From: an uncultured Desulfobacterales bacterium
Lineage (GTDB): Bacteria > Desulfobacterota > Desulfobacteria > Desulfobacterales > B30-G6
NCBI GenBank assembly: GCA_964452555.1
Contig: CAYVMI010000018.1
Coordinates: 32,329-96,328 of the forward strand
Reading direction: 5' to 3'
DNA: 64,000 bases
A program made the translations under genes and the position numbers. Shown piece by piece: positions 4,235-56,219 of the stretch. Every line of letters begins with the position of its first letter. Position 1 is the first letter of the stretch. The notes beneath the pieces were generated by a model. The model was not told the DNA's origin. It did no database searches and was given only the letters and a program-made list of their open reading frames with translations.

Positions 4235-4405
4235 ATCCGTATGTTGGGATGTTCGATGTTAAAGCAGTTTATGCTGGATACTGCTTTAGCTTTTTAGGTG
4301 TTTAGACTGTAGGCTGTAGGCGTTTAACCGCCTAACAGTCAAAAAGTCTTCAGCCTAACAGCCTTGACTCCTGAATTCTGTCTTCTGACTTCTGTCTCCT
4401 GTCTC

Positions 4406-4615: not shown

Positions 4616-4835
4616 GGTTGTTGTCTCTTTTCCTTGGTTTTTATTAATGTCGTATTCTCATTCCCCATTTTATCGAAATGAAAAGTAAAGGCCAGGATGC
4701 CGGATGCTTGATCCTTGATGCTAGTTGCTGGATGCTGGTCAACCCGCAACCCAATTCCCGTAACCCTTCACACCTCCAAACCTACACCCTCCAACCCTCT
4801 CTAACAGCCTAACAGTCTTCAGCCTAATAGCCTGG

Positions 4836-8794: not shown

Positions 8795-10634
8795 TGTAGT
8801 ATTCCTCCATGGGAATGCTAATGATAAAATAGGTGCCTTTTCCGAGTTCACTTTTTACGTCGATCCTGCCACCATGCAGGTTGATAATCTCTGCAGCAAT
8901 GCATAATCCCAAGCCGGTACCTTGATTATCCTGAACCTTGGGATTGGACGAACGATAGAATTTATCGAAAATGTGATCCAGATCTTCCTGGGACATGCCG
9001 TAACCGGTATCGCTGATATCAAAAATGATATTGCCGCCCTCTTTCCGCAAGCCGAAGTCGATCACACCCTTTTGGGGCGTGTATTTAACCGCATTTCCGA
9101 GTATGTTGATAATGGCCCCCTTGAGCAGCTCTTTATCCCCCATAAAAACCGGGAAATTGTCAGGTGCATGACGCTCGATGGCGATCCCCTTTTTCTTGGC
9201 GCTGCCTTGCACCGAGACTAGACAATCCGTAAACAGCGAATCGGATTTAACAATATCTTTACTCAATGTAAGGCTGCCCATCTCGATTCTTGAGAGGTTC
9301 AGTAAATCTTTGATCAACCGCGATAGTCTCTTGGTTTCCTTGTTGATGGTATTAAAAAATTCCTTTTGGGTCTCAACATCCTCAATTTCACCTTCCATCA
9401 ACATTTCGCTGTAGGATTGAATGGTCGTCAGCGGTGTCATGATCTCATGCGACAAGTGGGCCACAAAAGCGATGGTATTTTTTTCCGCGTTTTTCTGGGT
9501 GGTAATATTGTTGAACGTAATTAAACTACCCGAAGAATGATTGTCTGCTCCGGTTAACGGCGTACAGGTGACTGAAAAGACATCTGTCTCCGAAAGCTCC
9601 GTAAGGGATAGCTCCACATGGTTTTGGGCCCGCAGCTGTTCTAGGCTGCCTTGTTGCGAAATGAAATGCACCAGAGCTGAATTGGAAAAAACTTCCTCAA
9701 AAGGCCGGTCGATCATATCGCGCCGAGTTTTGCCCAGATGCATCAACAGATAGTCATTGATGTGAACCACGCAGCCTTGAATATCGATAATCATGATGCC
9801 GTAATTAATGGTATTGAGAATATCGACGATCTGCCTTTTTTCATATTTGACGACACCCACCTGGGAGGCCAGACCCTTGTTATTTCCCTCGATTTTTTTG
9901 AGCTGTTTTTTCAATCGCACCAAAGCCACATGAAAATCTTTAATCATGCCATCAATGCTACCGATGCCGAAGGCCCGGGCCAACTCGTTTTTGGTCCGAC
10001 GCCGCGATGATTTGGGCACCAACTTGGAAACGGTCCCCCGGAGCGGCTTGACTGCCTGAAGGATGCCGTATTGGAATATGATGACGACGGCGGTAATAAA
10101 AAAGAAAAGCATCCCCAACAGGCTGATCCTTTCCTTGGTAAATAGGGATAGCGGCTCGAGCATCAGTCCGATATTAACGGTACCGGCCCGCTCCCCGTTT
10201 TCGAAAATCGGTTTTGAAAAGTCGAAAAGCCGGGCATCGTTATCTGTAAACTCAAAGGGTGAAAACACCAGCCCGGCCGCTTTTACCCTGCTTGAGTTTT
10301 GATCATTCTTGATGGCCAAATTGACCTGGGGCAGCCTAAAGGAAACCAATGTGGCCCCCGATCGATCGACAATGTGACAGTATGCCAGTCCTTCCTTGGT
10401 GGAATACTCCATCAGGGTTCTCACGAAGAAATCATGTTCCTTCTCAAAGGTTGCCATCGGTTGTAAGGCGATCAAGCTGACCAGGTGGTTGCCTTTGGTA
10501 TAGACTTCCTGGACCCGCTCCTTATTTTCGGTCCTGAGTTGAAAATTGGTTATAACAAATAGGCCCGAGAAAATGAGTAATATGAGAAAAAAATTGATGG
10601 CTTTTGTTTTCAGCACGTCGATGCTTCCCTTCAT
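8784..10634 (-). CDS. Membrane sensor histidine kinase (two TM segments, extracytoplasmic domain, PAS, HisKA, HATPase_c)
   Basis: H-box FVAHLSHEIMTPL, G-boxes DTGYGM and GTGLGL; start moved to MKGSIDV (ATG 10634, AAGGTGGTG upstream). Confidence 0.9.
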   Translation of the reverse strand: MKGSIDVLKTKAINFFLILLIFSGLFVITNFQLRTENKERVQEVYTKGNHLVSLIALQPMATFEKEHDFFVRTLMEYSTKEGLAYCHIVDRSGATLVSFRLPQVNLAIKNDQNSSRVKAAGLVFSPFEFTDNDARLFDFSKPIFENGERAGTVNIGLMLEPLSLFTKERISLLGMLFFFITAVVIIFQYGILQAVKPLRGTVSKLVPKSSRRRTKNELARAFGIGSIDGMIKDFHVALVRLKKQLKKIEGNNKGLASQVGVVKYEKRQIVDILNTINYGIMIIDIQGCVVHINDYLLMHLGKTRRDMIDRPFEEVFSNSALVHFISQQGSLEQLRAQNHVELSLTELSETDVFSVTCTPLTGADNHSSGSLITFNNITTQKNAEKNTIAFVAHLSHEIMTPLTTIQSYSEMLMEGEIEDVETQKEFFNTINKETKRLSRLIKDLLNLSRIEMGSLTLSKDIVKSDSLFTDCLVSVQGSAKKKGIAIERHAPDNFPVFMGDKELLKGAIINILGNAVKYTPQKGVIDFGLRKEGGNIIFDISDTGYGMSQEDLDHIFDKFYRSSNPKVQDNQGTGLGLCIAAEIINLHGGRIDVKSELGKGTYFIISIPMEEYYIDD

Positions 10635-11874: not shown

Positions 11875-12068
11875 GGACATCCTATAAAAGAAGGCTTGCA
11901 ACTACCGGCATCGGTCCTATATTTTCACCTATATTGTTTGATTTTATCTCTTGTAAAATTCATATTTAATGGAAATTGGGCCAAAATCGACCTGTAACCG
12001 ATAATCAATGCTAACAGCAAAGAGCCACAAGTTAATGGCTGGCTTAAACGAGATCCGAGAGGTGAATT

Positions 12069-13661: not shown

Positions 13662-13868
13662 ATGCAAACAGTTACTGTATCGCCGAAATTTCAGGTCGTT
13701 ATACCAAAGGTCATTCGTGAGGCTATGCAGATCCGTCCCGGCCAAAAGTTAAAAATCATCGAGTATGATGGACGAATCGAATTAATCCCAGAAAAGGACA
13801 TCGTAGAATTACAAGGATTTCTTAAAGGTATTAATACGAATTTCATTCGAGAGGACGACCGCCTATGA
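13662..13868 (+). CDS. vapB: AbrB/SpoVT-fold antitoxin (VapB-type)
   Basis: MQTVTVSPKFQVVIPKVIREAMQIRPGQKL; 4-nt overlap with the PIN gene. Confidence 0.8.
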   Translation: MQTVTVSPKFQVVIPKVIREAMQIRPGQKLKIIEYDGRIELIPEKDIVELQGFLKGINTNFIREDDRL

Positions 13869-14242
13869 ATATTGTGGATTCCTCGGGATGGCTTGAATAC
13901 TTTTCAGACGGCTTCAATGCAGAGTATTATAAGCAACCGCTTCAAAATCCTTCTGACTTGATCGTTCCATCCATAACTATTTACGAAGTTTTTAAGGTTG
14001 TTCTACGCGAAGCCGATGAAAAAAATGCACTGCTATCCATAGCTGCCATGCAAAAAGGAACGGTTGTTGATTTAAATCCCAGCATTGCCATCAATGCTGC
14101 CAAGCTGAGTCTTAATCATCATCTCCCTATGGCGGACAGCATTATATTAGCCACTGCAAAAAAGTATGACTGTCTTATTTGGACTCAGGATTCCGATTTT
14201 AAAAATCTACCAAATGTTAATTATTTTCCGATTAAAAAATAA
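13865..14242 (+). CDS. vapC: PIN-domain ribonuclease toxin (VapC)
   Basis: IVDSSGWLEY ... ADSIILATAKK ... WTQDSDF acidic PIN residues. Confidence 0.85.
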   Translation: MNIVDSSGWLEYFSDGFNAEYYKQPLQNPSDLIVPSITIYEVFKVVLREADEKNALLSIAAMQKGTVVDLNPSIAINAAKLSLNHHLPMADSIILATAKKYDCLIWTQDSDFKNLPNVNYFPIKK

Positions 14243-14260
14243 CGATATTCCCTATATTCA

Positions 14261-14300
14261 AAGCCCCAATCGGTTACTAACCAATTGGGGCTTTTATTTC
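14261..14300 (+). terminator. Rho-independent terminator after vapC
   Basis: agccccaat(13 nt)attggggct + ttttattt. Confidence 0.7.
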
Positions 14301-14351
14301 ATATCAATTTAAGCGGCGATGCCACACCCGCTGTAAAATTGCAAAGGATTG

Positions 14352-14480
14352 GTACCTGAGTTGAGCGATTGTCGAGGTTGCCGCATATACAAGGAAGATG
14401 CTTTTCCGCTATAGTTGACTATGCGGGACAGCATCTGACGCCGTAGATGTGGTGAGATCGGCAATCCCGGAGGGTTTTAG
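14352..14480 (+). repeat. Rod-like structured repeat (about 113-nt core), copy 1
   Basis: attgtcgaggttgccg...agatgct..ccgctatag-ttga-ctatgcgg..agcatct...gatcggcaatccc; near-identical to 18842..18969. Confidence 0.8.
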
Positions 14481-14561
14481 TCTTTGGGATATAAGATCGA
14501 TATCATTCCTTGATTTAAAGTATTCACAATTCACCCCAAAAACTAAAACGCTCAGTTCAGG

Positions 14562-15527
14562 TTAGAGCTCTTCGATCGCTTCCGTCAACTCCGGCAGAAA
14601 ATCGAGGATGTCGGCTTCGATGCCCACATCCGCCACCTGAAAAATAGGGGCCTTGGGATTTTTATTGATGGCCACGATAAAGGGATTGCCTTTGATCCCG
14701 CCCAAATGCTGGAAGGAGCCGCTGATCCCGCAGGCCAGGTAAACCTTGGGCTTGACCGTCTGGCCGCTCGTACCCACCTGCCGTGATTTTTCCAGCCATT
14801 TGGCGTCTACGATGGGACGCGAACAGCTCACTACGGCACCCATGGCCTTGGCCAGGTCTTCGGCGATTTCAATATTGTCTTCGTCTTCGATGCCGCGACC
14901 AATGGATACCAGCACATCCTCTTTGGTAATATCCACGTCACCTACTTCTGCCACCACGGTTTCAAGGTAGGTCCGCTTGGTGGACAAATCACCGGCTTCC
15001 CCGGATTTATCTACCACCTGGCCGGAAGCGCTTTTGCTTTCATCCGGTTGAAATGCCCCGGGCCTTACATTGACAACGGCTCCGGCGGCAATATCACAGG
15101 TTACATGGGTGCTGACCGCACCGCCATATTCCTGGCGCACGCATTTGAGAACCGAACCGTCCATGCCCTCAAATCCGACCACATCGGCCACAAAAGCCGA
15201 GTCCATTTTAATGGAAAGACCCGGTGCCAGATCCATACCAAAAGTATCGTGGGGCACCAAAAGCGTGCCATCGGCAGGCAATATGTTTAGTAAAACATTG
15301 CGGATGATTTCAGCATTGGGGTATGCCAGGGCCTCGTTTTCCACCTTCCAAACCTCGGCATAAGATGCCGCCAGATCATTGCAGAGCGCTTCGATCCCCG
15401 AACCCACGACTATGGCTGTGGGCGCTGCACCGGCATCGAGCTGTTTGGCCGCAGTTACCAGCTCCAGAGCTGAATCATCAGGGACCCCGTCCTTATACGT
15501 AATATAACTAAAAATCTGTCCTGACAT
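14562..15527 (-). CDS. etfA: Electron transfer flavoprotein alpha subunit
   Basis: 321 aa; C-terminal FAD-binding signature ...YLACGISGSFQHLGG... Confidence 0.95.
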   Translation of the reverse strand: MSGQIFSYITYKDGVPDDSALELVTAAKQLDAGAAPTAIVVGSGIEALCNDLAASYAEVWKVENEALAYPNAEIIRNVLLNILPADGTLLVPHDTFGMDLAPGLSIKMDSAFVADVVGFEGMDGSVLKCVRQEYGGAVSTHVTCDIAAGAVVNVRPGAFQPDESKSASGQVVDKSGEAGDLSTKRTYLETVVAEVGDVDITKEDVLVSIGRGIEDEDNIEIAEDLAKAMGAVVSCSRPIVDAKWLEKSRQVGTSGQTVKPKVYLACGISGSFQHLGGIKGNPFIVAINKNPKAPIFQVADVGIEADILDFLPELTEAIEEL

Positions 15528-16318
15528 TATTTGAGCCCTCCTTTGGCCTTGAGTAGTTCAATCAGTTTCTCAACGATCTCTTCGGTACTGCCTTCCAGCA
15601 TCTCAGCACCTTCTCCCAGCTCCGGAACGAAATAGTCCAACCGTTTGACACCGGCACCGGCGGCGCCGACGGCCTCGGCCGCCAGCCCCAGGTCTCCGGG
15701 ACCATGCACTGGGATATCAATGGATGCAACCTTGCGGATGCCGCGGATACCGACATAGCGCGGTTCGTTGATACCGGTCTGGATGGAAAGTACGCAAGGC
15801 AAAGTTATTTCACTCATTTCCTGGTTGCCGCCTTCGATTTCCCGCCCAATCTTAAGCTTTTTGTCATCAACGACCTCTATGGCGTTGACCAGCGATGCAT
15901 AGGGCACATCCAACATGGCCGCCAGCATGCCACCCACCTGACCGGCACCGTCGTCAGCCTGGGCTCCGGTCAAAATCAGGTCGTAATTACCTTTTTCCAC
16001 AGCGGCCTTCAGGATGGATGCAATGCCTTTACCATCGGAGTCTTCAAAGGCATCATCGGAAAGCAGCAGGCCGTTGTCGGCACCCATAGCCATTTCGCGC
16101 CGGACCACCTCTTCGGATTCCTCATCACCCACCGAAACCACGGTGACGCTGCCGCCTTTGTCATCCCGGATCTGGATGGCTTCCTCTACGGCATAATTGT
16201 CCCATTCATTGACCGAATATACCAGATCATCAGTTTCAATCCCGCTGCCGTCGCTGTTGACCTCGATTTCATTCTCTGCTGTATCCGGTACTCTTTTGAC
16301 ACATACCAAGATTTCCAT
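15527..16318 (-). CDS. etfB: Electron transfer flavoprotein beta subunit
   Basis: MEILVCVKRVPD... typical EtfB N-terminus; TAATG junction with etfA. Confidence 0.95.
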   Translation of the reverse strand: MEILVCVKRVPDTAENEIEVNSDGSGIETDDLVYSVNEWDNYAVEEAIQIRDDKGGSVTVVSVGDEESEEVVRREMAMGADNGLLLSDDAFEDSDGKGIASILKAAVEKGNYDLILTGAQADDGAGQVGGMLAAMLDVPYASLVNAIEVVDDKKLKIGREIEGGNQEMSEITLPCVLSIQTGINEPRYVGIRGIRKVASIDIPVHGPGDLGLAAEAVGAAGAGVKRLDYFVPELGEGAEMLEGSTEEIVEKLIELLKAKGGLK

Positions 16319-16390
16319 GTCCTACCTCCCATGATTTAATGTAGTTCTTTTTCTATTTGGAAGTCATATTTTTAACCGATCATATACCCA

Positions 16391-16543
16391 CTAAGGGTTC
16401 CAGGAGTCAAGGATCCAAGGGGTCGAGTGAACAAACAAATCGCTGTGAGCTTTTTGCTTTAAGCTGCAAGATAAGGAGCCAAGAGCTAAAAACGAAGAGC
16501 TTATCACTTGAATCCTCGGCTCCTTGAATCCTCGAATCCTTAG
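16391..16543. repeat. Word-tile inverted arms in the etfB / FeS-oxidoreductase spacer
   Basis: ctaagggttccaggagtcaaggatccaagg (16391..) versus cttgaatcctcggctccttgaatcctcgaatccttag (..16543); both arms end in ctaagg/ccttag. Confidence 0.75.
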
Positions 16544-16556
16544 ACCATCAGATCCT

Positions 16557-18659
16557 TTACTCAGCCGCATCTCGGGGGCTTGATTGATTGCTGCCAATAT
16601 GTTGGGCCACCAGTTCGACCAGATCAATGGCTTCCATTTTACCTTCCATGCCGGCAACCTTAATGGCATCTTCCATATTGACCAAACAGAATGGACAGGC
16701 CGTAACAATTACATCGGCACCGGCCTCGGCCGCCATTTCCACCCGTAAAACCCCCATGCGCTGTTCTTCCTCGGGCTCATAAAAAAGCATCAGCCCGCCA
16801 CCCCCACAGCAAAACGACCGATCACGACACTTAAGCATATCGACCCGTTTTAACCCCGGAATGGCATCCAATACTTCTCGGGGCTCGTCATAGAGACCGT
16901 TGTGCCGCCCCAGATAGCAGGGATCATGATAGGTGTAAACCTTGCCGTTGCTGCCGTTCGCCGCCAGCTTTAGATCGCCCGACTTTATCTTTTCCAGGAT
17001 AAGTTGGCTGATATGCTCAACCGGTGGCATCTCATCATAATCGTTTTTGAGCGCGTTGAAGGCATGCGGATCAGCCGTAATGATTTTTTCAACGCCACTG
17101 TTTAAAATCGCGTCTGTATTTTTGTCGCGCAAGTCTTGAAACAGCATTTCCTCGCCGAAACGGCGAACTTCATGACCGCTGTCCTTTTCAGCCTTGCCCA
17201 GGATGCCGAAATCCTCGCCGGCAGCGGACATCACCCTGGCGGTGGCGCGGCCGATATCCTGCATGCGGTCGTCATAAGAAGTGATGCTGTCCACAAAATA
17301 GAGGGTCGCTGCCGACTCTTTTTTACCCAGGACTTTAACCGGGCTATCTTCAGCCAGTTCCTTGGTCCAGTCCACACGTTTTTTCTCCATCTTGCCCCAG
17401 GGATTGCCGCGTTTTTCCAGCGCGCGCAGCGGTTTTTGCAGCGACTGCGGCACCGCGCCTTCATCCACCATCCCCCGGCGCAGATCCACAACCTTGTCGA
17501 TGTATTCGATCCCCAAAGGACATTCCTGCTCACAGGCACCACAGGTTGTGCAGGACCAGATCTCATCATCGTCATACACACTTTCCATCAGCGGCTTACT
17601 TTCCGGAGGAGCGGCTCCCAAAGGATAGATGGGATGGCTTTCAAACAACGCATCACGACCTTTGATGGAGATAAAGCGGGGAGACAAGGGTCGTTTGACC
17701 GCGTTGGCCGGACATTGGTCCGAGCAGCGGCCGCAATCGGCGCAGGAATAAAAATCCAGCATGTGCTTCCAGGTAAATTCGGTAAGATTTTTAACCCCAA
17801 ACGACTCCAGGTCGTCCAGTTGTTCGTCGCTGATACCATGTCGGACCGGCTTGACATTGCCCCGGTCAATCCGCATGAAAAACACATTAAATACAGACGT
17901 GATCACATGAAAATGCTTGCCCAGCGGCAAAAAACACATGAAGAAGAAGAAGGTGATATCATGAATGTAATACATGCCCAGATGGGTCGCCTGAAGACCG
18001 TTTATGGATGCCCCTCCCAGCAATAGCTTGAAAAACCAGGCTAAACTCAGGGGTGCGATCACCTCGGCATGCAGGCCTTTTTGGATCTGGGCGGCTGCAG
18101 TGCTGGCTTCAAACAAACCCTCCGAGATCATGAGCGTGGAAATCAGGCAGAGGACAAACACGGCTTCACCGGTATGGTCTTTACCATAGCGCTCCGGCAC
18201 GGCATAACGTGCCGGTTTGATGATACCCCTGCGTATCATGGCAATGATGCATGCCACCAGCACGGCGGTAGCGGCGTAATCTTTGAGCAAACTATAGACC
18301 ACCCCCAGGCCGCCCCCCAAACCGGGAAAAACAAAATCCGATGAGATGCCGATGATCACCAAGGAAGTGGACCGGATACCCAATATTAGAAAGCCGAAGA
18401 AAATGACAATGTGCAGAACGCCGGCCAGCATGTAGCGCGGCTGTCTCCATTGCAGCAGCCAAATTTTAATCAGCTTGCCGAACCTTTCACCAAAACGGTT
18501 CCAGCGCGGATCCGGTGCCGCCTTGAGCAAGGGAATAATGCGCATGGCCATGATATACGCAAAGACCACCACACCAATTAGGGGAATTAACCATGAAAAA
18601 GTTACTGTCGCAATCCCGATGAAAGATGCATCCGCCGGGGGAATCAACACAGTTTCCAT
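16557..18659 (-). CDS. Membrane-bound FeS oxidoreductase (N-terminal multi-TM domain + 2x[4Fe-4S] + two CCG domains; HdrD/DsrK/GlpC-like, candidate ETF:quinone oxidoreductase)
   Basis: 700 aa; CADCGRCSDQCP and CTTCGACEQECP ferredoxin motifs; FCCGGGG and VTACPFC CCG-domain motifs; sits next to etfBA and an acyl-CoA dehydrogenase. Confidence 0.85.
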   Translation of the reverse strand: METVLIPPADASFIGIATVTFSWLIPLIGVVVFAYIMAMRIIPLLKAAPDPRWNRFGERFGKLIKIWLLQWRQPRYMLAGVLHIVIFFGFLILGIRSTSLVIIGISSDFVFPGLGGGLGVVYSLLKDYAATAVLVACIIAMIRRGIIKPARYAVPERYGKDHTGEAVFVLCLISTLMISEGLFEASTAAAQIQKGLHAEVIAPLSLAWFFKLLLGGASINGLQATHLGMYYIHDITFFFFMCFLPLGKHFHVITSVFNVFFMRIDRGNVKPVRHGISDEQLDDLESFGVKNLTEFTWKHMLDFYSCADCGRCSDQCPANAVKRPLSPRFISIKGRDALFESHPIYPLGAAPPESKPLMESVYDDDEIWSCTTCGACEQECPLGIEYIDKVVDLRRGMVDEGAVPQSLQKPLRALEKRGNPWGKMEKKRVDWTKELAEDSPVKVLGKKESAATLYFVDSITSYDDRMQDIGRATARVMSAAGEDFGILGKAEKDSGHEVRRFGEEMLFQDLRDKNTDAILNSGVEKIITADPHAFNALKNDYDEMPPVEHISQLILEKIKSGDLKLAANGSNGKVYTYHDPCYLGRHNGLYDEPREVLDAIPGLKRVDMLKCRDRSFCCGGGGLMLFYEPEEEQRMGVLRVEMAAEAGADVIVTACPFCLVNMEDAIKVAGMEGKMEAIDLVELVAQHIGSNQSSPRDAAE

Positions 18660-18841
18660 TAATTTTTTTCCTTCATTGCATTGAACGATGATTCATTTGT
18701 AGCTATATTGTAACCAAACCGTCGATATCATAAAAGCATCAACCGGGCAAGTCCCCATAAAAAACTGCGCCAAGTTCAGCTTTCTATTGAAAATTGCCGA
18801 ATTATACTTTTAAGATCCGGTCTACAGCTGCAAGTTACAGT

Positions 18842-18969
18842 GGCCTGATGTGGGCAATTGTCGAGGTTGCCGTAGCTACAAGGAAGATGCTGTTTCGCTA
18901 TAGTGTACTATGCGGGATGGCATCTGACGCAGTAGATGCGGTAAGATCGGCAATCCCGTAGGGTTTCAG
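18842..18969 (+). repeat. Rod-like structured repeat, copy 2
   Basis: About 14 mismatches over roughly 113 nt relative to copy 1 (aligned by eye); same orientation. Confidence 0.8.
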
Positions 18970-19054
18970 ATTTTAAGAAATTAAATGATTAGAATCCTAA
19001 TTGTTATATAATTTCTATCGATTATTCTTAAAATCTGAAATGCTCCCATTAGGC

Positions 19055-20878
19055 TTATTTTCCGCCGAAACTATCCTCCCCAATCTGGGTAATGGCATCG
19101 CTGCTGTTTAGAATGGCGTTCATTTTTCCCATGCTGACGGGCAGTATCGACTGCATAAAAAATTGGGCGCTTTTAATTTGTCCTTCATAAAAAGCCCGGT
19201 CTTTTTTCTTGGCGCCGGCTTCGAGCAGTTCGGCTGCAATGGATGCCCGCCATAGAAGCATCCAGGCCATAACGGCATCGCCCATGACCTCCATAAAAGG
19301 ATAGGCATGGGCAAAGGCATCCATGACTTTATCCGACATGGCTGTTTTGCCCAAATGCATGGCGACCTCGCCCAGCTTGTTGACGGCTTCGGTAAGCTTG
19401 TCCGCCAGGCCGGCCAACGACGGCACGGCTTTGGCCCTGGCGATGGCAGCCTGGACCTCACCCAGCAGGTCCATTATCGGCCGGCCTTCGTTCATCCCCA
19501 ATTTACGGCCCAGCAGATCCATTGCCTGGATCCCGTTGGTGCCCTCGTAAATCATGGTAATGCGGCAGTCCCGGACGAGTTGCTCCTGAGGATACTCCTT
19601 AATATAACCATAGCCGCCGTAAACCTGCATACCCATGTTGCAGACATCATAGGCGCGATCAGAGACATAGCCCTTGGCAATCGGTATCAGAATATCTACG
19701 AGGCCCTTCAATTTTTCTATTTCAGCATCGTCATCGGAAATTTCGACGCGATCGTCGCACAAGGCCACATAATAGAGCAAACTGCGCATGCCTTCCACAT
19801 AAGCTTTCATGGTCAACAGTTGACGGCGCACATCGGGGTGTTGAATAATGGGGATGGATTTGGCTTCTTTTTCCCCGCTCATAACGGCTTGCAGGTTTTT
19901 TCCCTGTATTCGTTCCCGTGCATAGTTGATGGCATTGACATAGGACGCACTGGCGCAGCTCAGGCCCTGCATCCCCACCAGCAGGCGGGCTTCGTTCATC
20001 ATCAGAAACATGGCTCGCATGCCTTTATTTTCTTCTCCCAACAAAAACCCGCGGCAGCTGTCCTTGCCGCCCAATGTCAACGAACAGGTCGAGTTGCCGT
20101 GGATACCCATCTTTTCTTCAACGCCCGTGCAAACCACGTCGTTGGCATCGCCCAGGCTGCCGTCTGCATTGACCCATATTTTGGGGACCAGAAACAGTGA
20201 TATCCCTTTGGTTCCTTCGGGCGCGCCCTCGATTCGCGCCAGTACCGGGTGAATGATGTTTTCGGCCAAATCGTGCTCCCCGGAGCTGATAAAAATTTTG
20301 CTGCCGCTAATACTATAGGTACCATCATCATTCTTGACCGCAGTCGTAGTCAAAGCGCCCACATCCGATCCGGCCTCGGGCTCGGTCAGCAGCATGGTCC
20401 CGGTCCATTCACCGCTGTACATCTTCTTCAAAAACAGTTTTTTGAGCTCGTCGGTTCCAAAGGCTTCCACCAGTTTACCGGCGCCGTGTGTCAGTCCCGG
20501 ATACATCATAAAGGCATAGTTGGCGGCGTTGAAATAATCACTCGCCGCAAGTGCCACCGTACGGGGCATCCCCTGGCCACCCCATTCAGGATCTTCGGTC
20601 ATGGCCAGCCATTCCCCCTCTTTAAAAAGGTCCCAGGCCGAGTGAAACTCTTTGGGGACGGTGACCTGGCCGTTTTCAAAACGGGTGCCTTCCCTATCGC
20701 CGATTTCCCGCGTGGGCAGGATCTCCTTGATAGCCAGATTGCGCGCTTCGGATATAATCAAATCCACTGTTTTGCGGTTAAATTCCGCGAACGATTCATG
20801 TTTGCTGATATCGGCCACATCCAGCTGCTCATGCAGCACGAAATCCACATCTCTTCGATCTGCGAGTTGTTGTGCCAT
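19055..20878 (-). CDS. Long acyl-CoA dehydrogenase (with C-terminal extension domain)
   Basis: 607 aa; ...YEGTNGIQAMDLLGRK... ACAD signature. Confidence 0.95.
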   Translation of the reverse strand: MAQQLADRRDVDFVLHEQLDVADISKHESFAEFNRKTVDLIISEARNLAIKEILPTREIGDREGTRFENGQVTVPKEFHSAWDLFKEGEWLAMTEDPEWGGQGMPRTVALAASDYFNAANYAFMMYPGLTHGAGKLVEAFGTDELKKLFLKKMYSGEWTGTMLLTEPEAGSDVGALTTTAVKNDDGTYSISGSKIFISSGEHDLAENIIHPVLARIEGAPEGTKGISLFLVPKIWVNADGSLGDANDVVCTGVEEKMGIHGNSTCSLTLGGKDSCRGFLLGEENKGMRAMFLMMNEARLLVGMQGLSCASASYVNAINYARERIQGKNLQAVMSGEKEAKSIPIIQHPDVRRQLLTMKAYVEGMRSLLYYVALCDDRVEISDDDAEIEKLKGLVDILIPIAKGYVSDRAYDVCNMGMQVYGGYGYIKEYPQEQLVRDCRITMIYEGTNGIQAMDLLGRKLGMNEGRPIMDLLGEVQAAIARAKAVPSLAGLADKLTEAVNKLGEVAMHLGKTAMSDKVMDAFAHAYPFMEVMGDAVMAWMLLWRASIAAELLEAGAKKKDRAFYEGQIKSAQFFMQSILPVSMGKMNAILNSSDAITQIGEDSFGGK

Positions 20879-21178
20879 TTTTCCTCTCCTATTTATAAGG
20901 CTGTAGGCTATAGACTGTTAGGCTATTAGGCGCCTATAGCTCATTGTTATATGTTATAAGTTCTGTCTTAAACCTTTTAAACTTTTATACTTTATTCGCT
21001 CCCTCCAAAACTGTGATGCTGGTTGCTGGATGCTAGTTGCCGGATGCTGGGGCGCTAGGACGCTTTATAGCTGTACCGCGTAACCCGAATCCCACGACCC
21101 GAAACACAAAACCCGACCCCCGCAACCCGTTCTCTGCTTACTGCTTACTCCATACTGCTTACCGCTTCTGTCTCCTGA

Positions 21179-21823
21179 CTACTGCTCATCGCTGCTTCCA
21201 ATCCCGTGGATAAAAAGAGATACCAGCGGATCGGTCATGGATGCCAGGTCATATTTACTTCCGGAATGCAGCCACGTGTTGATAACCTCGTCCACCGCAC
21301 CTAAAATGAAGCGTTTGACCAAACCCACATACAAATCTTTACGGATGCTGCCCTCGGCCTGGCCCTGTTCCACAATTTCGGTCACAATATCCAGATACAT
21401 ATCAGACATTTCACGTATCTGGTCTTCCACCATGCGGGTCCGCTGGTGGGTTTCCGATTGGTACAAAATCGCCATATGGCGATCGGCCTGAAACTCCTGC
21501 AGATGCCGGCGGATCAGGTTGCCCAGCTTATCAATGGCGTTATCGGCCTTGTTCACCTCTTCCCGGAATCGCCCAAAAACCTGTTTGGTTTTGTAATTAA
21601 AAAACTGAAGCAGAATGTCATCTTTATTTTTAAAATATAAATAGATGGTACCGTCAGCCACCCCGGCTTCTCGGGCGATCTGGGCCACAGTTGACTGAAA
21701 AAAACCATTCTCGGCAAATATCTTGATGGCTGCCTCGAGGATGCGATGGTATTTGTCGTTATTTTTGCGCTTCTTGGGAATAATGCACCTCCGGTCTTTG
21801 AACCATTGTGAATGAATGCTCAT
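21179..21823 (-). CDS. TetR-family transcriptional regulator (FadR-like by context)
   Basis: HTH ILEAAIKIFAENGFFQSTVAQIAREAGVADGTIYLYF; start codon uncertain (see findings). Confidence 0.9.
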   Translation of the reverse strand: MSIHSQWFKDRRCIIPKKRKNNDKYHRILEAAIKIFAENGFFQSTVAQIAREAGVADGTIYLYFKNKDDILLQFFNYKTKQVFGRFREEVNKADNAIDKLGNLIRRHLQEFQADRHMAILYQSETHQRTRMVEDQIREMSDMYLDIVTEIVEQGQAEGSIRKDLYVGLVKRFILGAVDEVINTWLHSGSKYDLASMTDPLVSLFIHGIGSSDEQ

Positions 21824-21828
21824 TCATT
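21811..21828. promoter_or_regulatory. Candidate TetR operator: AATGAATG-ct-CATTCATT palindrome
   Basis: Perfect 8+8 inverted repeat spanning the annotated ATG and overlapping the predicted -10. Confidence 0.55.
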
Positions 21829-21854
21829 TTATTAGCCAATTAAGCGCATGTCAA
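21826..21854 (-). promoter_or_regulatory. Candidate sigma70 promoter of the tetR gene
   Basis: On coding strand TTGACA-17 nt-TAAAAT. Confidence 0.55.
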
Positions 21855-22110
21855 GCACTTTTTTGGATCATGTGTACCCAGTCACACCTGCCATTCTATC
21901 GAATAAGTAATTAATAATATTAGATAAAATAAAACATACCGATCAAACCGCCATTTTCAATTGCGGCAATAAAATTAAAATGAACTTATATTCATAATTT
22001 AGAACGACAGGGATAGTCCTGGAGAGACGGAAGGCAGAATATAGAATCGGGTTGTGGGTTGCATCTTGCAGGTTTCAAATTCGGTTTGCAATTATCATCC
22101 TCAATAAACT

Positions 22111-22195
22111 TGTCCCCTTGGAGGAGGGGATCGGGGATCCGGATTAGGCTCTGGGCCATCTGCAGGGACAGGATTCCCTCTTCCGAGGGAATGAC
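22111..22195 (-). repeat. Dual-hairpin REP-like element, copy C (inverted orientation)
   Basis: ggATTCCCTCttccGAGGGAATgac is the exact reverse complement of the copy B hairpin; the second hairpin is variant (gtccccttggaggaggggat). Confidence 0.75.
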
Positions 22196-22469
22196 GGGAA
22201 GGGCAAATGAAGCAGAAAGCAGTAAGGTCTAAGCGGTCAGCGGCCTAAAGCTGAAGGCTGTCAACTGCCGAACGGCATTCCAACCGCCAGCACCGAGAGT
22301 CCAGGATCAAGCATCAAGCATCCAGAACCCGGCATCATATTTTAGGGGTCAGCCGCCGTCGCCCCTTCGATATACTCAGGGCTATGACGGCCAGGGGAGA
22401 CAGAAGACAGAATGATGCTACGAGCTGCAGGTTACGAGTTGCAGGTTACGAGTTGCGAGATGCGGATCC

Positions 22470-22550
22470 GCTCATCCCCGAGAATCTGGGACTCAGATTC
22501 AGCTATTATCTGATAGCTTTCTCCGGAGCCCCTCTTCCGAGTGAGTGACG
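22470..22550 (-). repeat. Dual-hairpin REP-like element, copy D (degenerate)
   Basis: gctcatccccgagaatctgggact ... ggagcccctcttccgagtgagtgacg; decayed stems. Confidence 0.5.
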
Positions 22551-22633
22551 AAAGTAGTTAACTGTTAAGGAGTAAAATCAGATAACAAGAAGCTATAGGC
22601 GCCTAACAGTCTTCAGCCTAATAGCCTATCGGC

Positions 22634-24205: not shown

Positions 24206-24371
24206 AAGGTTTCACTTTCGTTTGCGCTAATCATAAGCCACCGACCTAGTCGGTGGTCGTTGACTCTCGTATTACCTTTTAAATTCGTTTGTTATCATCG
24301 CTATCGGGATCGCTATCGGGATCGGGATCGTTTCTTGATGAGTTATGCTCTGATGTTAGTGTTTCGATTTC

Positions 24372-24419
24372 GATACCGATACCGATACCGATACCGATAC
24401 CGATACCGATACCGATACC
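24372..24419. repeat. Perfect tandem hexamer (GATACC)x8
   Basis: Counted directly; flanked by degenerate units; imperfect inverse partner atcgctatcgggatcgctatcgggatcgggatcg at 24294..24330. Confidence 0.95.
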
Positions 24420-24680
24420 GATGGGGAAGATAAGCATATCCCCATGATTTTTCAAGCAAAGAAATAGATTGGTTTTAAGTTTTAGGTTTTAAGTTTTATG
24501 CTTGTATCAAGCTGAACGCCATCAGCCTAAAACAATCCTAACACTTAAAACCTAAAACCTAAAACTGAATATAAAACCTAAAACATAGACATCAATATCA
24601 GATTTTTATATATAATTTCAATTAGTTGAGTCTTTGCCCCCCCTAAAAACATATCAAGTACCACCTAGTGCCAATTTCTA

Positions 24681-47092: not shown

Positions 47093-47200
47093 AACATCGA
47101 ACATTCAACATCCAACACTGAACATCGAATGACTTTCTCGCTAATTGCCAATAGGTTCGATGTTCGATGTTGGAAGTTCGATGTTCAATGTTCGATTCGG
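47093..47200. repeat. Inverted word-tile arms, cgaacatccaaca family, locus 1
   Basis: aacatcgaacattcaacatccaacactgaacatcgaatg / ggttcgatgttcgatgttggaagttcgatgttcaatgttcgattcgg. Confidence 0.85.
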
Positions 47201-56071: not shown

Positions 56072-56219
56072 AAATGAACATCGAACATCCAACGTCCAAC
56101 ACCCAACGTCGATTTGTGTTTGTCAGCTAATTGTATTCAGCATTTGTGGGCTTTCAGCCATGAGCAAAGAGCTACATTTCGATGTTCAGTGTTCGATGTT
56201 CGATGTTGGACGTTCATTT
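56072..56219. repeat. Inverted word-tile arms, cgaacatccaaca family, locus 2 (nested inside outer arms 55935..55975 / 56245..56272)
   Basis: aaatgaacatcgaacatccaacgtccaacacccaacgtcgat / atttcgatgttcagtgttcgatgttcgatgttggacgttcattt. Confidence 0.85.

Follow-up and report, generated by a model that had tools for sequence, protein, structure and literature searches.

The DNA analysed here, to which we refer as the window, is a stretch of 64,000 nucleotides from an uncultured Desulfobacterales bacterium (contig CAYVMI010000018.1 of assembly GCA_964452555.1, positions 32,329 to 96,328 of the forward strand), and our subject is a structured repeat that occurs in it twice. Along the window a PIN-domain gene on the + strand (13865-14242) is followed, on the - strand, by the genes for ETFa (14562-15527), ETFb (15527-16318), an Fe-S/CCG oxidoreductase (16557-18659), and an acyl-CoA dehydrogenase (ACAD; 19055-20878), which four identities, assigned correctly in an earlier note made from the letters of the DNA, were established through Pfam; beyond the ACAD lies a TetR gene (21179-21823), and past the ACAD also a class I LysRS gene, on the - strand and likewise recognized through Pfam. 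The Fe-S oxidoreductase places the window in the Desulfobacterales. One copy of the repeat stands on either side of the etfA-etfB-oxidoreductase segment, and the earlier note had proposed that a unit of ~113 nt brackets that block exactly and might specify a + strand RNA. We consider it very likely that the repeat instead makes up the hairpin half of a non-autonomous transposon measuring ~207 bp—a MITE, or miniature inverted-repeat transposable element—present as two independent insertions, and that the copies are neither the boundaries of a cassette nor an RNA gene.

A repeat search of the window returned a direct-repeat family of two copies only (14328-14497 and 18817-18986), spaced 4489 bp apart in the same orientation. 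Upon alignment with MAFFT and direct counting, the cores at 14369-14480 and 18858-18969 differed at 14 of 112 positions, so that the direct repeat is real; and nhmmer recognized each copy with E=1e-38, the rest of the window giving no match. With its filters switched off, a covariance model built on the complete element gave exactly two full-length matches in the window, both on the + strand, at 209 bits (14355-14561) and 201 bits (18844-19053), the reverse strand reaching only ~30 bits; no third copy was found in the window by blastn, nhmmer, or that model. On the + strand each core folds, as the earlier note had drawn it, into one long irregular hairpin, with energies of -54.0 and -59.1 kcal/mol (z = -5.4 and -6.2), as against -37.1 and -29.9 kcal/mol on the - strand.

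Copy 1 is a full element of 207 bp (14355-14561, + strand; model positions 1-208), situated between the ETFa stop codon and the likely terminator hairpin of the PIN/ETFa spacer. Its left terminal inverted repeat (TIR-L; 14355-14367, CCTGAGTTGAGCG), whose family consensus is CCTAAnTTGAGCG, pairs with the right one (TIR-R; 14549-14561, CGCTCAGTTCAGG), which repeat abuts the stop codon of ETFa, read as TTA on the + strand (14562-14564). Between the two lie the rod hairpin (14368-14465, alignment columns 14-112)—composed of a basal helix AUUGUC/GGCAAU, a middle helix, a tandem G·A, and apical helices, and corresponding to the ~113-nt repeat of the earlier note—then a mini-hairpin CCC-GGA-GGG (14466-14474) with a T-rich run after it, and finally an AT-rich second hairpin, degenerate in this copy (14474-14548, alignment columns 124-207). 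Copy 2 is a full element of 210 bp (18844-19053, + strand) within the gene row from the ACAD to FeS-etfBA, and consists of a rod (18857-18954), a mini-hairpin CCC-GTA-GGG (18955-18963), an AT-rich hairpin (18963-19040), and a TIR-R (19041-19053) that ends 1 nt 3' of the ACAD stop codon (19055-19057). Its terminal repeats, CCTGATGTGGGCA and TGCTCCCATTAGG, have diverged and its flanking 5-mers match at 1/5 positions, which divergence marks an old insertion. The real unit is accordingly one of 207-210 bp. The perfect 15-bp inverted repeat that had been described as a neighbour of copy 2 is exact (18965-18979, TTCAGATTTTAAGAA, pairing with 19025-19039, TTCTTAAAATCTGAA) and forms the stem of the AT-rich hairpin, being thus a part of the element, with the same hairpin present in copy 1. 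Of the helices that had been drawn, P2 to P4 proved essentially right; the register GGTTGCCG/CGGCAATCC given for P1 is unsupported, the basal helix being AUUGUC/GGCAAU. Two Logan short-read contigs from the same organism (L001, L002) end within MITE copies, one of them at the rod apex, in keeping with de Bruijn assemblies breaking at the element; L001 (14370-18908) was considered as an excised circle and discarded, its ends falling inside the repeats, once at the hairpin apex, as assembly breaks do.

The identification of the element comes from its family. We scanned genomes, taking one per species, with the pattern GGTTGCCG-N65-95-GATCGGCAATCCC, which search returned at least 119 loci; among the 119 listed, ~95 were true members with the same 93-nt spacing and the remainder were chance hits in other phyla. 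The members derive from ~45 metagenome-assembled genomes (MAGs) of the Desulfobacterales, Desulfobacteraceae, Desulfosarcinaceae, and Desulfococcaceae, a single MAG contributing at least 10. A scan of metagenomes anchored on the right end only (anchor AAATTTGAAACGCTCANNTTAGG) gave at least 123 matches in at least 120 loci, the 123 matches listed comprising 55 full elements, 13 partial rods, and 55 rod-less or truncated forms (~45%). The prospect, raised in the earlier note, that these two copies might be the only ones did not materialize: more than 150 copies were recovered in total, from ~45 Desulfobacterales MAG species plus metagenomes, and their substitutions keep the helices. When the flanks are lined up, conservation begins at (A)CCTAAnTTGAGCG, continues beyond the rod, and stops at CGCTCAnnTTAGG(T); and between these 13-bp terminal repeats follow a GC-rich rod of ~98 nt, a mini-hairpin of 3-4 bp (CCC-NNN-GGG), whose stem is invariant and whose loop varies, some copies having a 4-bp stem, and the AT-rich hairpin, with the consensus TTTCAAATTTTAAAA...TTTTAAAATTTGAAA.

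Among 83 well-bounded copies on genome contigs the modal length was 205-209 bp, and 30 of those 83 were flanked by perfect 5-bp duplications, with many more matching at 4/5 positions; the duplications conform to the consensus T(27/30)NNNA(27/30), are AT-rich, and lie in roughly palindromic surroundings. The independent metagenome sample contained perfect 5-bp duplications at 26 of 48 copies. Terminal repeats, 5-bp duplications, and the modal length together constitute the signature of a MITE; and the family indeed displays a short non-coding unit, within the ~50-500 bp usual for MITEs, with TIRs at its exact limits, a duplication of fixed length, copies dispersed at unrelated loci with neighbouring genes and orientations that vary from one copy to the next, and presence or absence at orthologous sites. 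A typical copy was also found on L086 (DATLAF010000152.1), a contig assigned by binning to a Thermoplasmatota archaeon and probably mis-binned Desulfobacterales, and two more copies (L130 and L133, from IMG/VR) are on contigs catalogued as viral.

The relatives of the window, for their part, bear on whether the two copies delimit anything. In four loci whose Fe-S protein is 92% identical (L003-L006), a copy is present in the ACAD/FeS spacer and none follows ETFa, where the spacer measures ~90 nt; in four others at 83-84% identity (L007-L010), both sites lack a copy. The alignment of the ETFa/PIN spacer with that of L003 exhibits a clean insertion of ~200 nt in the window, the copy-1 site being empty in that relative, and in the ACAD/FeS spacer the element is placed 1 nt past the ACAD stop, upstream of a motif conserved in all the relatives. 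The order LysRS-TetR-ACAD-FeS-ETFb-ETFa is kept in L007-L010 (the TetR being uncalled in L007), and ACAD-FeS-ETFb-ETFa is seen on the shorter contigs of L003-L006. Since relatives share the gene order whether they have a single copy or no copy at all, the block enclosed by the repeats (14562-18659, - strand; etfA, etfB, and the Fe-S/CCG oxidoreductase by Pfam) is an ordinary conserved operon segment, a housekeeping block and no cassette, that retains its order in L003-L010 whatever the repeats. The variable presence of the flanked block that the earlier note had contemplated is thus not what the relatives display: the window repeats arrived separately, their bracketing of the etf block is a coincidence, and the reading of them as cassette boundaries is in our view refuted. 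Moreover, the longest identical run common to both copies is 16 nt, which brevity makes them poor substrates for recombination.

The same findings speak to the proposal of a stand-alone structured small RNA (sRNA) gene of ~110 nt, antisense to the operon, whose two copies would mark off the etf block and might also regulate it or let it recombine. The hairpin and its strand bias are real, and the copies, 4489 bp apart, have the same orientation; yet terminal repeats and target duplications define a mobile unit of 207 bp, the more than 150 copies stand beside unrelated genes in all orientations, relatives have the same gene order without the repeats, the copy-1 site is empty in the 92%-identical L003, and the longest shared identical run is only those 16 nt. 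We therefore assign that proposal a very low probability. What endures of the + strand RNA is a structured and strand-biased sequence that is the property of one transposon module; a free-standing RNA gene of ~110 nt is at variance with the limits set by the TIRs, the lack of conservation upstream, the varied neighbours, and the comparison with Rfam that the earlier note had advised, from which no matching family emerged.

By its features the family belongs beside Correia/NEMIS of Neisseria, ERIC/IRU of the enterobacteria, RUP and BOX of the pneumococcus, the QMITEs of Coxiella, and Chunjie of Geobacter uraniireducens, all of which likewise are non-coding units of 100-250 bp with TIRs and short duplications that fade with age, occupy AT-rich intergenic targets in many dispersed copies, occur in size variants through internal deletion, and fold as stem-loops over the whole element. 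No relationship in sequence to any of these came to light, no search aimed at one having been made. Correia and RUP duplicate TA, and IS5-type elements have other duplications, from which the 5-bp TNNNA and the ends found here differ. Chunjie, of 178-235 bp, inserts into operons without breaking them (PMC10969869), and AT-rich targets, stable stem-loops, frequent truncated copies, and operon insertions are features of MITEs in general (PMC10969869). Unlike hairpin MITEs, the present element has for its interior a modular set—rod, mini-hairpin, and AT hairpin—instead of the two arms of one palindrome; and one of those modules is conserved across families, folds on one strand, and is dispensable for movement. 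We found no paper describing this family in the literature searched, so that, familiar though the kind of element is, the family itself has apparently yet to be described.

The ends of the element point to the source of its mobility. The ends of ISEcp1 on plasmid pC15-1a read CCTAGATTCTACGT for the left inverted repeat and CCTAAATTCCACGT, as the reverse complement, for the right; the ends of ISEcp1 and of the MITE alike start with CCTA, and the MITE end CCTAAATTGAGCG is identical at 10 of 13 positions to the right repeat CCTAAATTCCACG. ISEcp1 generates AT-rich direct repeats of 5 bp, such as TAATA and TAAGA (PMC6061673). The family thus shares with ISEcp1 and the IS1380 group both its type of ends and a duplication in the 4-5-bp class, and differs in being a MITE without a transposase gene whose likeness extends over 13 bp only. 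To judge from these features, an IS1380-family transposase is most likely the driver, the 13-bp likeness to ISEcp1 being one that may be convergent. A DDE transposase, supplied in trans, would bind both ends and attach them to AT-rich TNNNA targets cut with a 5-bp stagger, a reaction that would leave the duplication seen in the younger copies. Several candidates for an autonomous insertion sequence (IS) were discarded: the TIR matches outside MITEs in the loci were other MITE types and chance coding hits, the look-alikes in L126 and L147 were positioned in coding sequence, the left-end scan of the viral contigs gave two MITE copies, one element of a 159-bp type, and chance hits, the rod copies without a nearby right end were truncations or nested inserts, and the long TIR pairs in the metagenome loci were not IS elements.

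What the rod contributes to movement can be read from derivatives that lack it. Four rod-less elements of 102-110 bp (L204, L233, L172, and L251) each have a perfect 5-bp duplication, and two of them, L204 and L233, are one and the same deletion variant at two sites with a perfect duplication of its own at each; therefore, the rod is dispensable for movement, and is a passenger module. A second MITE type of 159 bp, with the same terminal repeats (CCTAAnTyGAGCGATTTTT) and an unrelated interior, was observed in L071 (2804-2962 and 5382-5540), in L091 (1387-1545), and near the end of L146; that type and the rod-less copies together imply that one transposase moves several mini-elements, either without cargo or differently loaded.

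In length and rod shape the repeat also resembles REPINs, the doublets of repetitive extragenic palindromes (REP) moved by the Y1 transposase RAYT, and the attC sites of integrons, above all those of the Vibrio cholerae repeat type. Like REPINs, it consists of rod-like hairpins of ~100 nt that number in the tens in each genome, are intergenic and often located just after stop codons, and undergo compensatory changes by which the hairpin is preserved; like the attC sites of the Vibrio cholerae repeats it is an imperfect hairpin within the range of 60-140 nt, those being mutually similar, read as folded DNA on one strand, and placed in direct orientation on either side of genes; its ends CCTAA...TTAGG loosely recall RYYYAAC/GTTRRRY; and L003 has a Y1_Tnp gene at a distance of 3 kb. 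An origin as REPIN or attC-like site nevertheless merits hardly any credence, the target duplications already refuting it in our judgement. The 13-bp TIRs and 5-bp duplications of our family are made by neither system, the window has both copies but lacks that Y1_Tnp gene and any linked RAYT gene, and no Y1 transposase occurred among the genes checked beside the window copies; nor do the copies form integrase-linked arrays, being single and dispersed, or conserve the inner C/G of the integron core (alignment columns 6/214), and what the two copies of the window enclose is a housekeeping operon that relatives conserve without the repeats.

A different explanation has to be weighed here: that the rod is a functional RNA module under host-level selection, with the MITE only as its vehicle, serving as an insulator or terminator against antisense transcription into the adjacent 3' end, as a binding site for an RNase or another protein, or as an sRNA precursor. 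We regard this explanation as possible, though with considerable doubt. RNAalifold, applied to 73 full elements, resolved a closing helix between the ends, the rod, the mini-hairpin, and the AT hairpin, the consensus rod having the basal AUUGUC/GGCAAU, the middle helix, the tandem G·A, and two apical helices. Standard pairs filled 97.3% of the cells, as against 93.4% in shuffles and 30-46% in slid controls; and compensatory double changes were found in 33 of 60 pairs, the shuffles giving 11.3±2 and the slid controls 13-20, figures in which account must be taken of the kinship among the copies and of the columns that the pattern of the genome scan had fixed. The basal helix, for example, is kept by a double change (G→U, C→A) as AUUUUC/GGAAAU in the subfamily of L111, L191, and L231. 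Mismatch cells in the rod helices of the genome sample comprised 114 G·U against 11 A·C, fixed wobbles left out. Because the scan pattern had fixed part of the rod, we repeated the count on the right-end-anchored metagenome sample, in which only 10 of 43 elements fit that pattern, and obtained 161 G·U against 12 A·C, a count that includes wobble pairs of fixed state, together with a rod identity of 81% and double changes in 12 pairs. That substitutions keep pairing on the + strand only, as the earlier note had tentatively read from its two copies, accordingly holds across the family, with compensatory changes and a ratio of ~10:1 in two independent samples.

The RNA module would likewise be favoured by the greater stability of the + strand in 73 of 73 elements (-49.6 vs -35.0 kcal/mol with RNA parameters), by fixed wobble pairs, U18·G108 among them (73/73), and the tandem G·A motif, and by hairpin insertions of variable length at the loops, such as structured RNAs have. 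These last were observed as GC-rich mini-hairpins of ~20 nt (..CCTCCAGAGGCGG.. or ..CCGCCTCTGG..) in the basal internal loop of the rod, on its 3' side in L019, L050, L077, L089, and L164 and on its 5' side in L076, L152, L168, and L203; the apex is extended by a GC hairpin in L036 and L040, and the AT hairpin of L056 and L083 contains a nested insert of ~100 nt. The loop insertions are length variation of the type that structured nucleic acids tolerate. A further item in favour is that a mini-hairpin and UUUCAAAUUUU come after the rod, which in the commonest arrangement points to the converging gene.

Against the RNA module stands the lack of transcription signals. The aligned family flanks revealed no conserved promoter, there being no conservation upstream of the left end, and the scans produced no convincing promoter or terminator call. 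A σ70-like TATACA-N18-TATAGT within copy 1 was set aside, its start falling in the apical loop and the motif being weak across the family; and an intrinsic terminator was likewise discarded, the scan finding none in either copy and the UUUCAAAUUUU run being preceded by the 3-bp CCC/GGG stem only, which hairpin is too weak for a canonical terminator, with its GC-rich stem of at least 5 bp directly before a U run. The neighbours of the genome sample were oriented (-,-) in 26 cases, (+,+) in 15, (-,+) in 11, and (+,-) in 10, from which mixture it follows that the favoured strand of the rod is not preferentially co-transcribed with its neighbours; and in the largest class the + strand is antisense to both. 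Rfam 15 gave no match in the window at gathering thresholds and, with E up to 10, only chance-level hits of microRNA type. A coding alternative was also considered: the only recurrent ATG frame of the rod ends after 6 codons in copy 1, a 29-codon open reading frame in the rod consensus meets early stops in copy 1 and in other copies too, and the rod varies through base-pair covariation and not codon-wise. The CsrA-like motif ACAAGGA occurs once per element, within an internal loop.

Alternatively, the one-strand fold might work as single-stranded DNA (ssDNA), for example as a hairpin that is extruded on one of the template strands while the DNA is replicated or transferred and that aids recognition, copying, or tolerance of the element. 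The strand bias without evident transcription signal or co-orientation of genes would accord with such a role, as would the greater stability of the + strand with DNA parameters (-22.8 vs -18.2 kcal/mol), again in 73 of 73. G·T pairs, however, lend little stability to DNA, the TIRs and 5-bp duplications indicate a double-strand DDE mechanism and not an HUH/ssDNA one, and the rod-less derivatives transpose. Furthermore, the terminal helix, with a wobble bias of 37:5 in the genome sample, fell to 18:12 in the independent sample, its bias thus not being replicated, so that no sign persists of the whole element folding as one strand and the corresponding panhandle was rejected. The ssDNA explanation is in our estimation improbable; and the rod alone is clearly a one-strand structure.

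Conservation of the rod in place was assessed between orthologous copies. Between copy 2 and its L003 orthologue the rod is identical at 83/93 positions (89%), the AT hairpin at 54/71 (76%), and the remaining spacer at 68%, and the fourfold-degenerate sites of the four flanking genes, which we take as neutral, have an identity of 62.7% (n=809), a contrast with the rod that favours the RNA module; the apical stem moreover differs by a compensatory change, AUAG/CUAU versus AUCG/CGAU. Four further orthologous pairs gave values of 69-98% for the element halves against 83-88% for the mostly coding flanks, with one rod broken by an insertion. That heterogeneity may reflect gene conversion or turnover, and the patchy conservation, together with the decayed rod of the pair L041/L152, counts against the RNA module. 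We consequently do not claim purifying selection in situ, it being clear for copy 2 versus L003 and patchy in those four pairs.

The placement of the copies against stop codons proved to be asymmetric. Of 40 cases in the genomes, 23 had the TIR-R end from -10 to +5 nt relative to the stop of a gene that converges on it, as against 2 of 28 for the TIR-L end and a co-directional gene (Fisher p = 2e-5), and the metagenome replicate of that test gave 10/21 versus 0/13 (Fisher p = 0.005). The arrangement with the AT-rich end toward the stop is the commonest in the family and is that of both window copies, which begin 0 nt after the ETFa stop and 1 nt after the ACAD stop, with the AT-rich end proximal to the gene and the favoured strand of the rod antisense. 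In several cases the stop codon, TAA or TGA, comes from the TIR itself. Since the target consensus is palindromic and both ends offer the same in-frame TAA/TGA, the asymmetry is not accounted for by the choice of target. Were the rod end proximal, the mRNA would have a hairpin of about -50 kcal/mol beginning ~14 nt past the stop, and such insertions would be weeded out; with the AT-rich end proximal, a ribosome would meet only a weak AU hairpin. REP hairpins near stop codons are reported to depress expression in Escherichia coli.

Several of these observations weigh against the MITE as a full explanation. The target duplications are unrecognizable at both window copies, the flanking 5-mers of copy 1 (TGGTA and TTAGA) matching at 2/5 positions and those of copy 2 at the 1/5 given above, for which reason the status of these copies as insertions is drawn from the traits of the family and the empty orthologous sites; degenerate duplications are nonetheless expected of old insertions, and the direct repeats flanking MITEs fade with age (PMC10969869). 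Neither the window nor 1.84 Mb of retrieved loci contained a tblastn match to the ISEcp1 transposase, no IS1380-like open reading frame was found close to any copy, and no autonomous element with these ends was found in the same sequences; with no such partner found, the assignment to IS1380 derives from the 13-bp ends and the duplication length only. The rod, besides, is at least as well conserved as the terminal repeats—87% versus 80-83% identity in the genome sample, and 81% versus 80% in the unbiased one—and possesses conserved wobbles along with arms of variable length, which conservation exceeds the demands of a model in which a transposase recognizes the element. The identity of the rod between copy 2 and L003 suggests function in place or gene conversion. 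Finally, only tentatively may the stop-codon asymmetry be ascribed to counter-selection of rod-proximal insertions.

With those points in mind, we advance only tentatively, as something that may well prove wrong, the fuller proposal that the rod is a single-strand functional module, either RNA or ssDNA, riding an IS1380-type MITE, selected across several Desulfobacterales families and at orthologous sites, and orientation-specific at the 3' ends of genes. Already in the MITE reading the rod, though unneeded for movement, is kept as a one-strand hairpin by selection, and our working view is that it may act single-stranded, whether as RNA upon read-through of the + strand or as ssDNA. On the fuller proposal a transposon would be spreading a ready-made structured element—an insulator against antisense transcription, a processing site, or a binding site—to many gene ends.

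The MITE reading itself removes an apparent oddity, in that the etf block is no mobile or recombining cassette and the repeat no operon-specific regulator; it defines a MITE family widespread in the sulfate-reducing Desulfobacterales, with precise boundaries, a target preference, and a covariance model, which definition is useful for annotation and for explaining breaks in metagenome contigs; and it suggests that IS1380-type transposases are probably what drives the family. Beyond the routine go two features, namely a module under strand-specific structural constraint that movement does not need, and an orientation-specific insertion at stop codons. If either reflects function, the family would offer a clean natural system in which to study how transposons deposit structured elements, of RNA or DNA, at the ends of genes, and could show selection against hairpins beside stop codons.

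The spacers occupied by the two copies contain further features. A GC-rich hairpin with a T run at 14260-14299, between the PIN gene and copy 1 and conserved in L003, is likely a bidirectional terminator shared by the converging genes, in consequence of which copy 1 is located between the etfA stop codon and its terminator. On the other side of the block, the motif GGGGnnTTGCCCGG..TTTATGrTATCGAC (~18715-18760, - strand), upstream of the Fe-S oxidoreductase, is kept in L003, L007, L008, and L010, with or without the MITE, and is probably the promoter or operator of FeS-etfBA, a TetR gene being nearby. In L007, directly 3' of the ACAD stop codon, a different insert of ~170 nt with heptamer-like repeats was observed (9690-10000), and the spot after that stop seems to be a general landing site. 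The Y1_Tnp gene of L003 (9750-10772) is IS200-like, includes a DnaA_C-like domain, has a peptidase M17 gene on one side and a GGDEF gene on the other, and is missing from the equivalent spacer of the window (~11875-12068).

Many intergenic regions of the window also contain short tandem arrays of 7-8-nt units (GGATGCT, GTTCGAT, ATTCTGA, CGATAC, CCTAAAA, and CTTGAATC), among other places at 2789-2837, 4368-4401, 4695-4738, 16507-16541, 21015-21167, 22419-22456, 24371-24598, 47093-47196, and 56077-56215. Several of these arrays recur as distant direct or inverted pairs, as do 47093-47187 with 56075-56214 and 2698-2840 with 20898-22612, and they constitute a class of repeats separate from the MITE.

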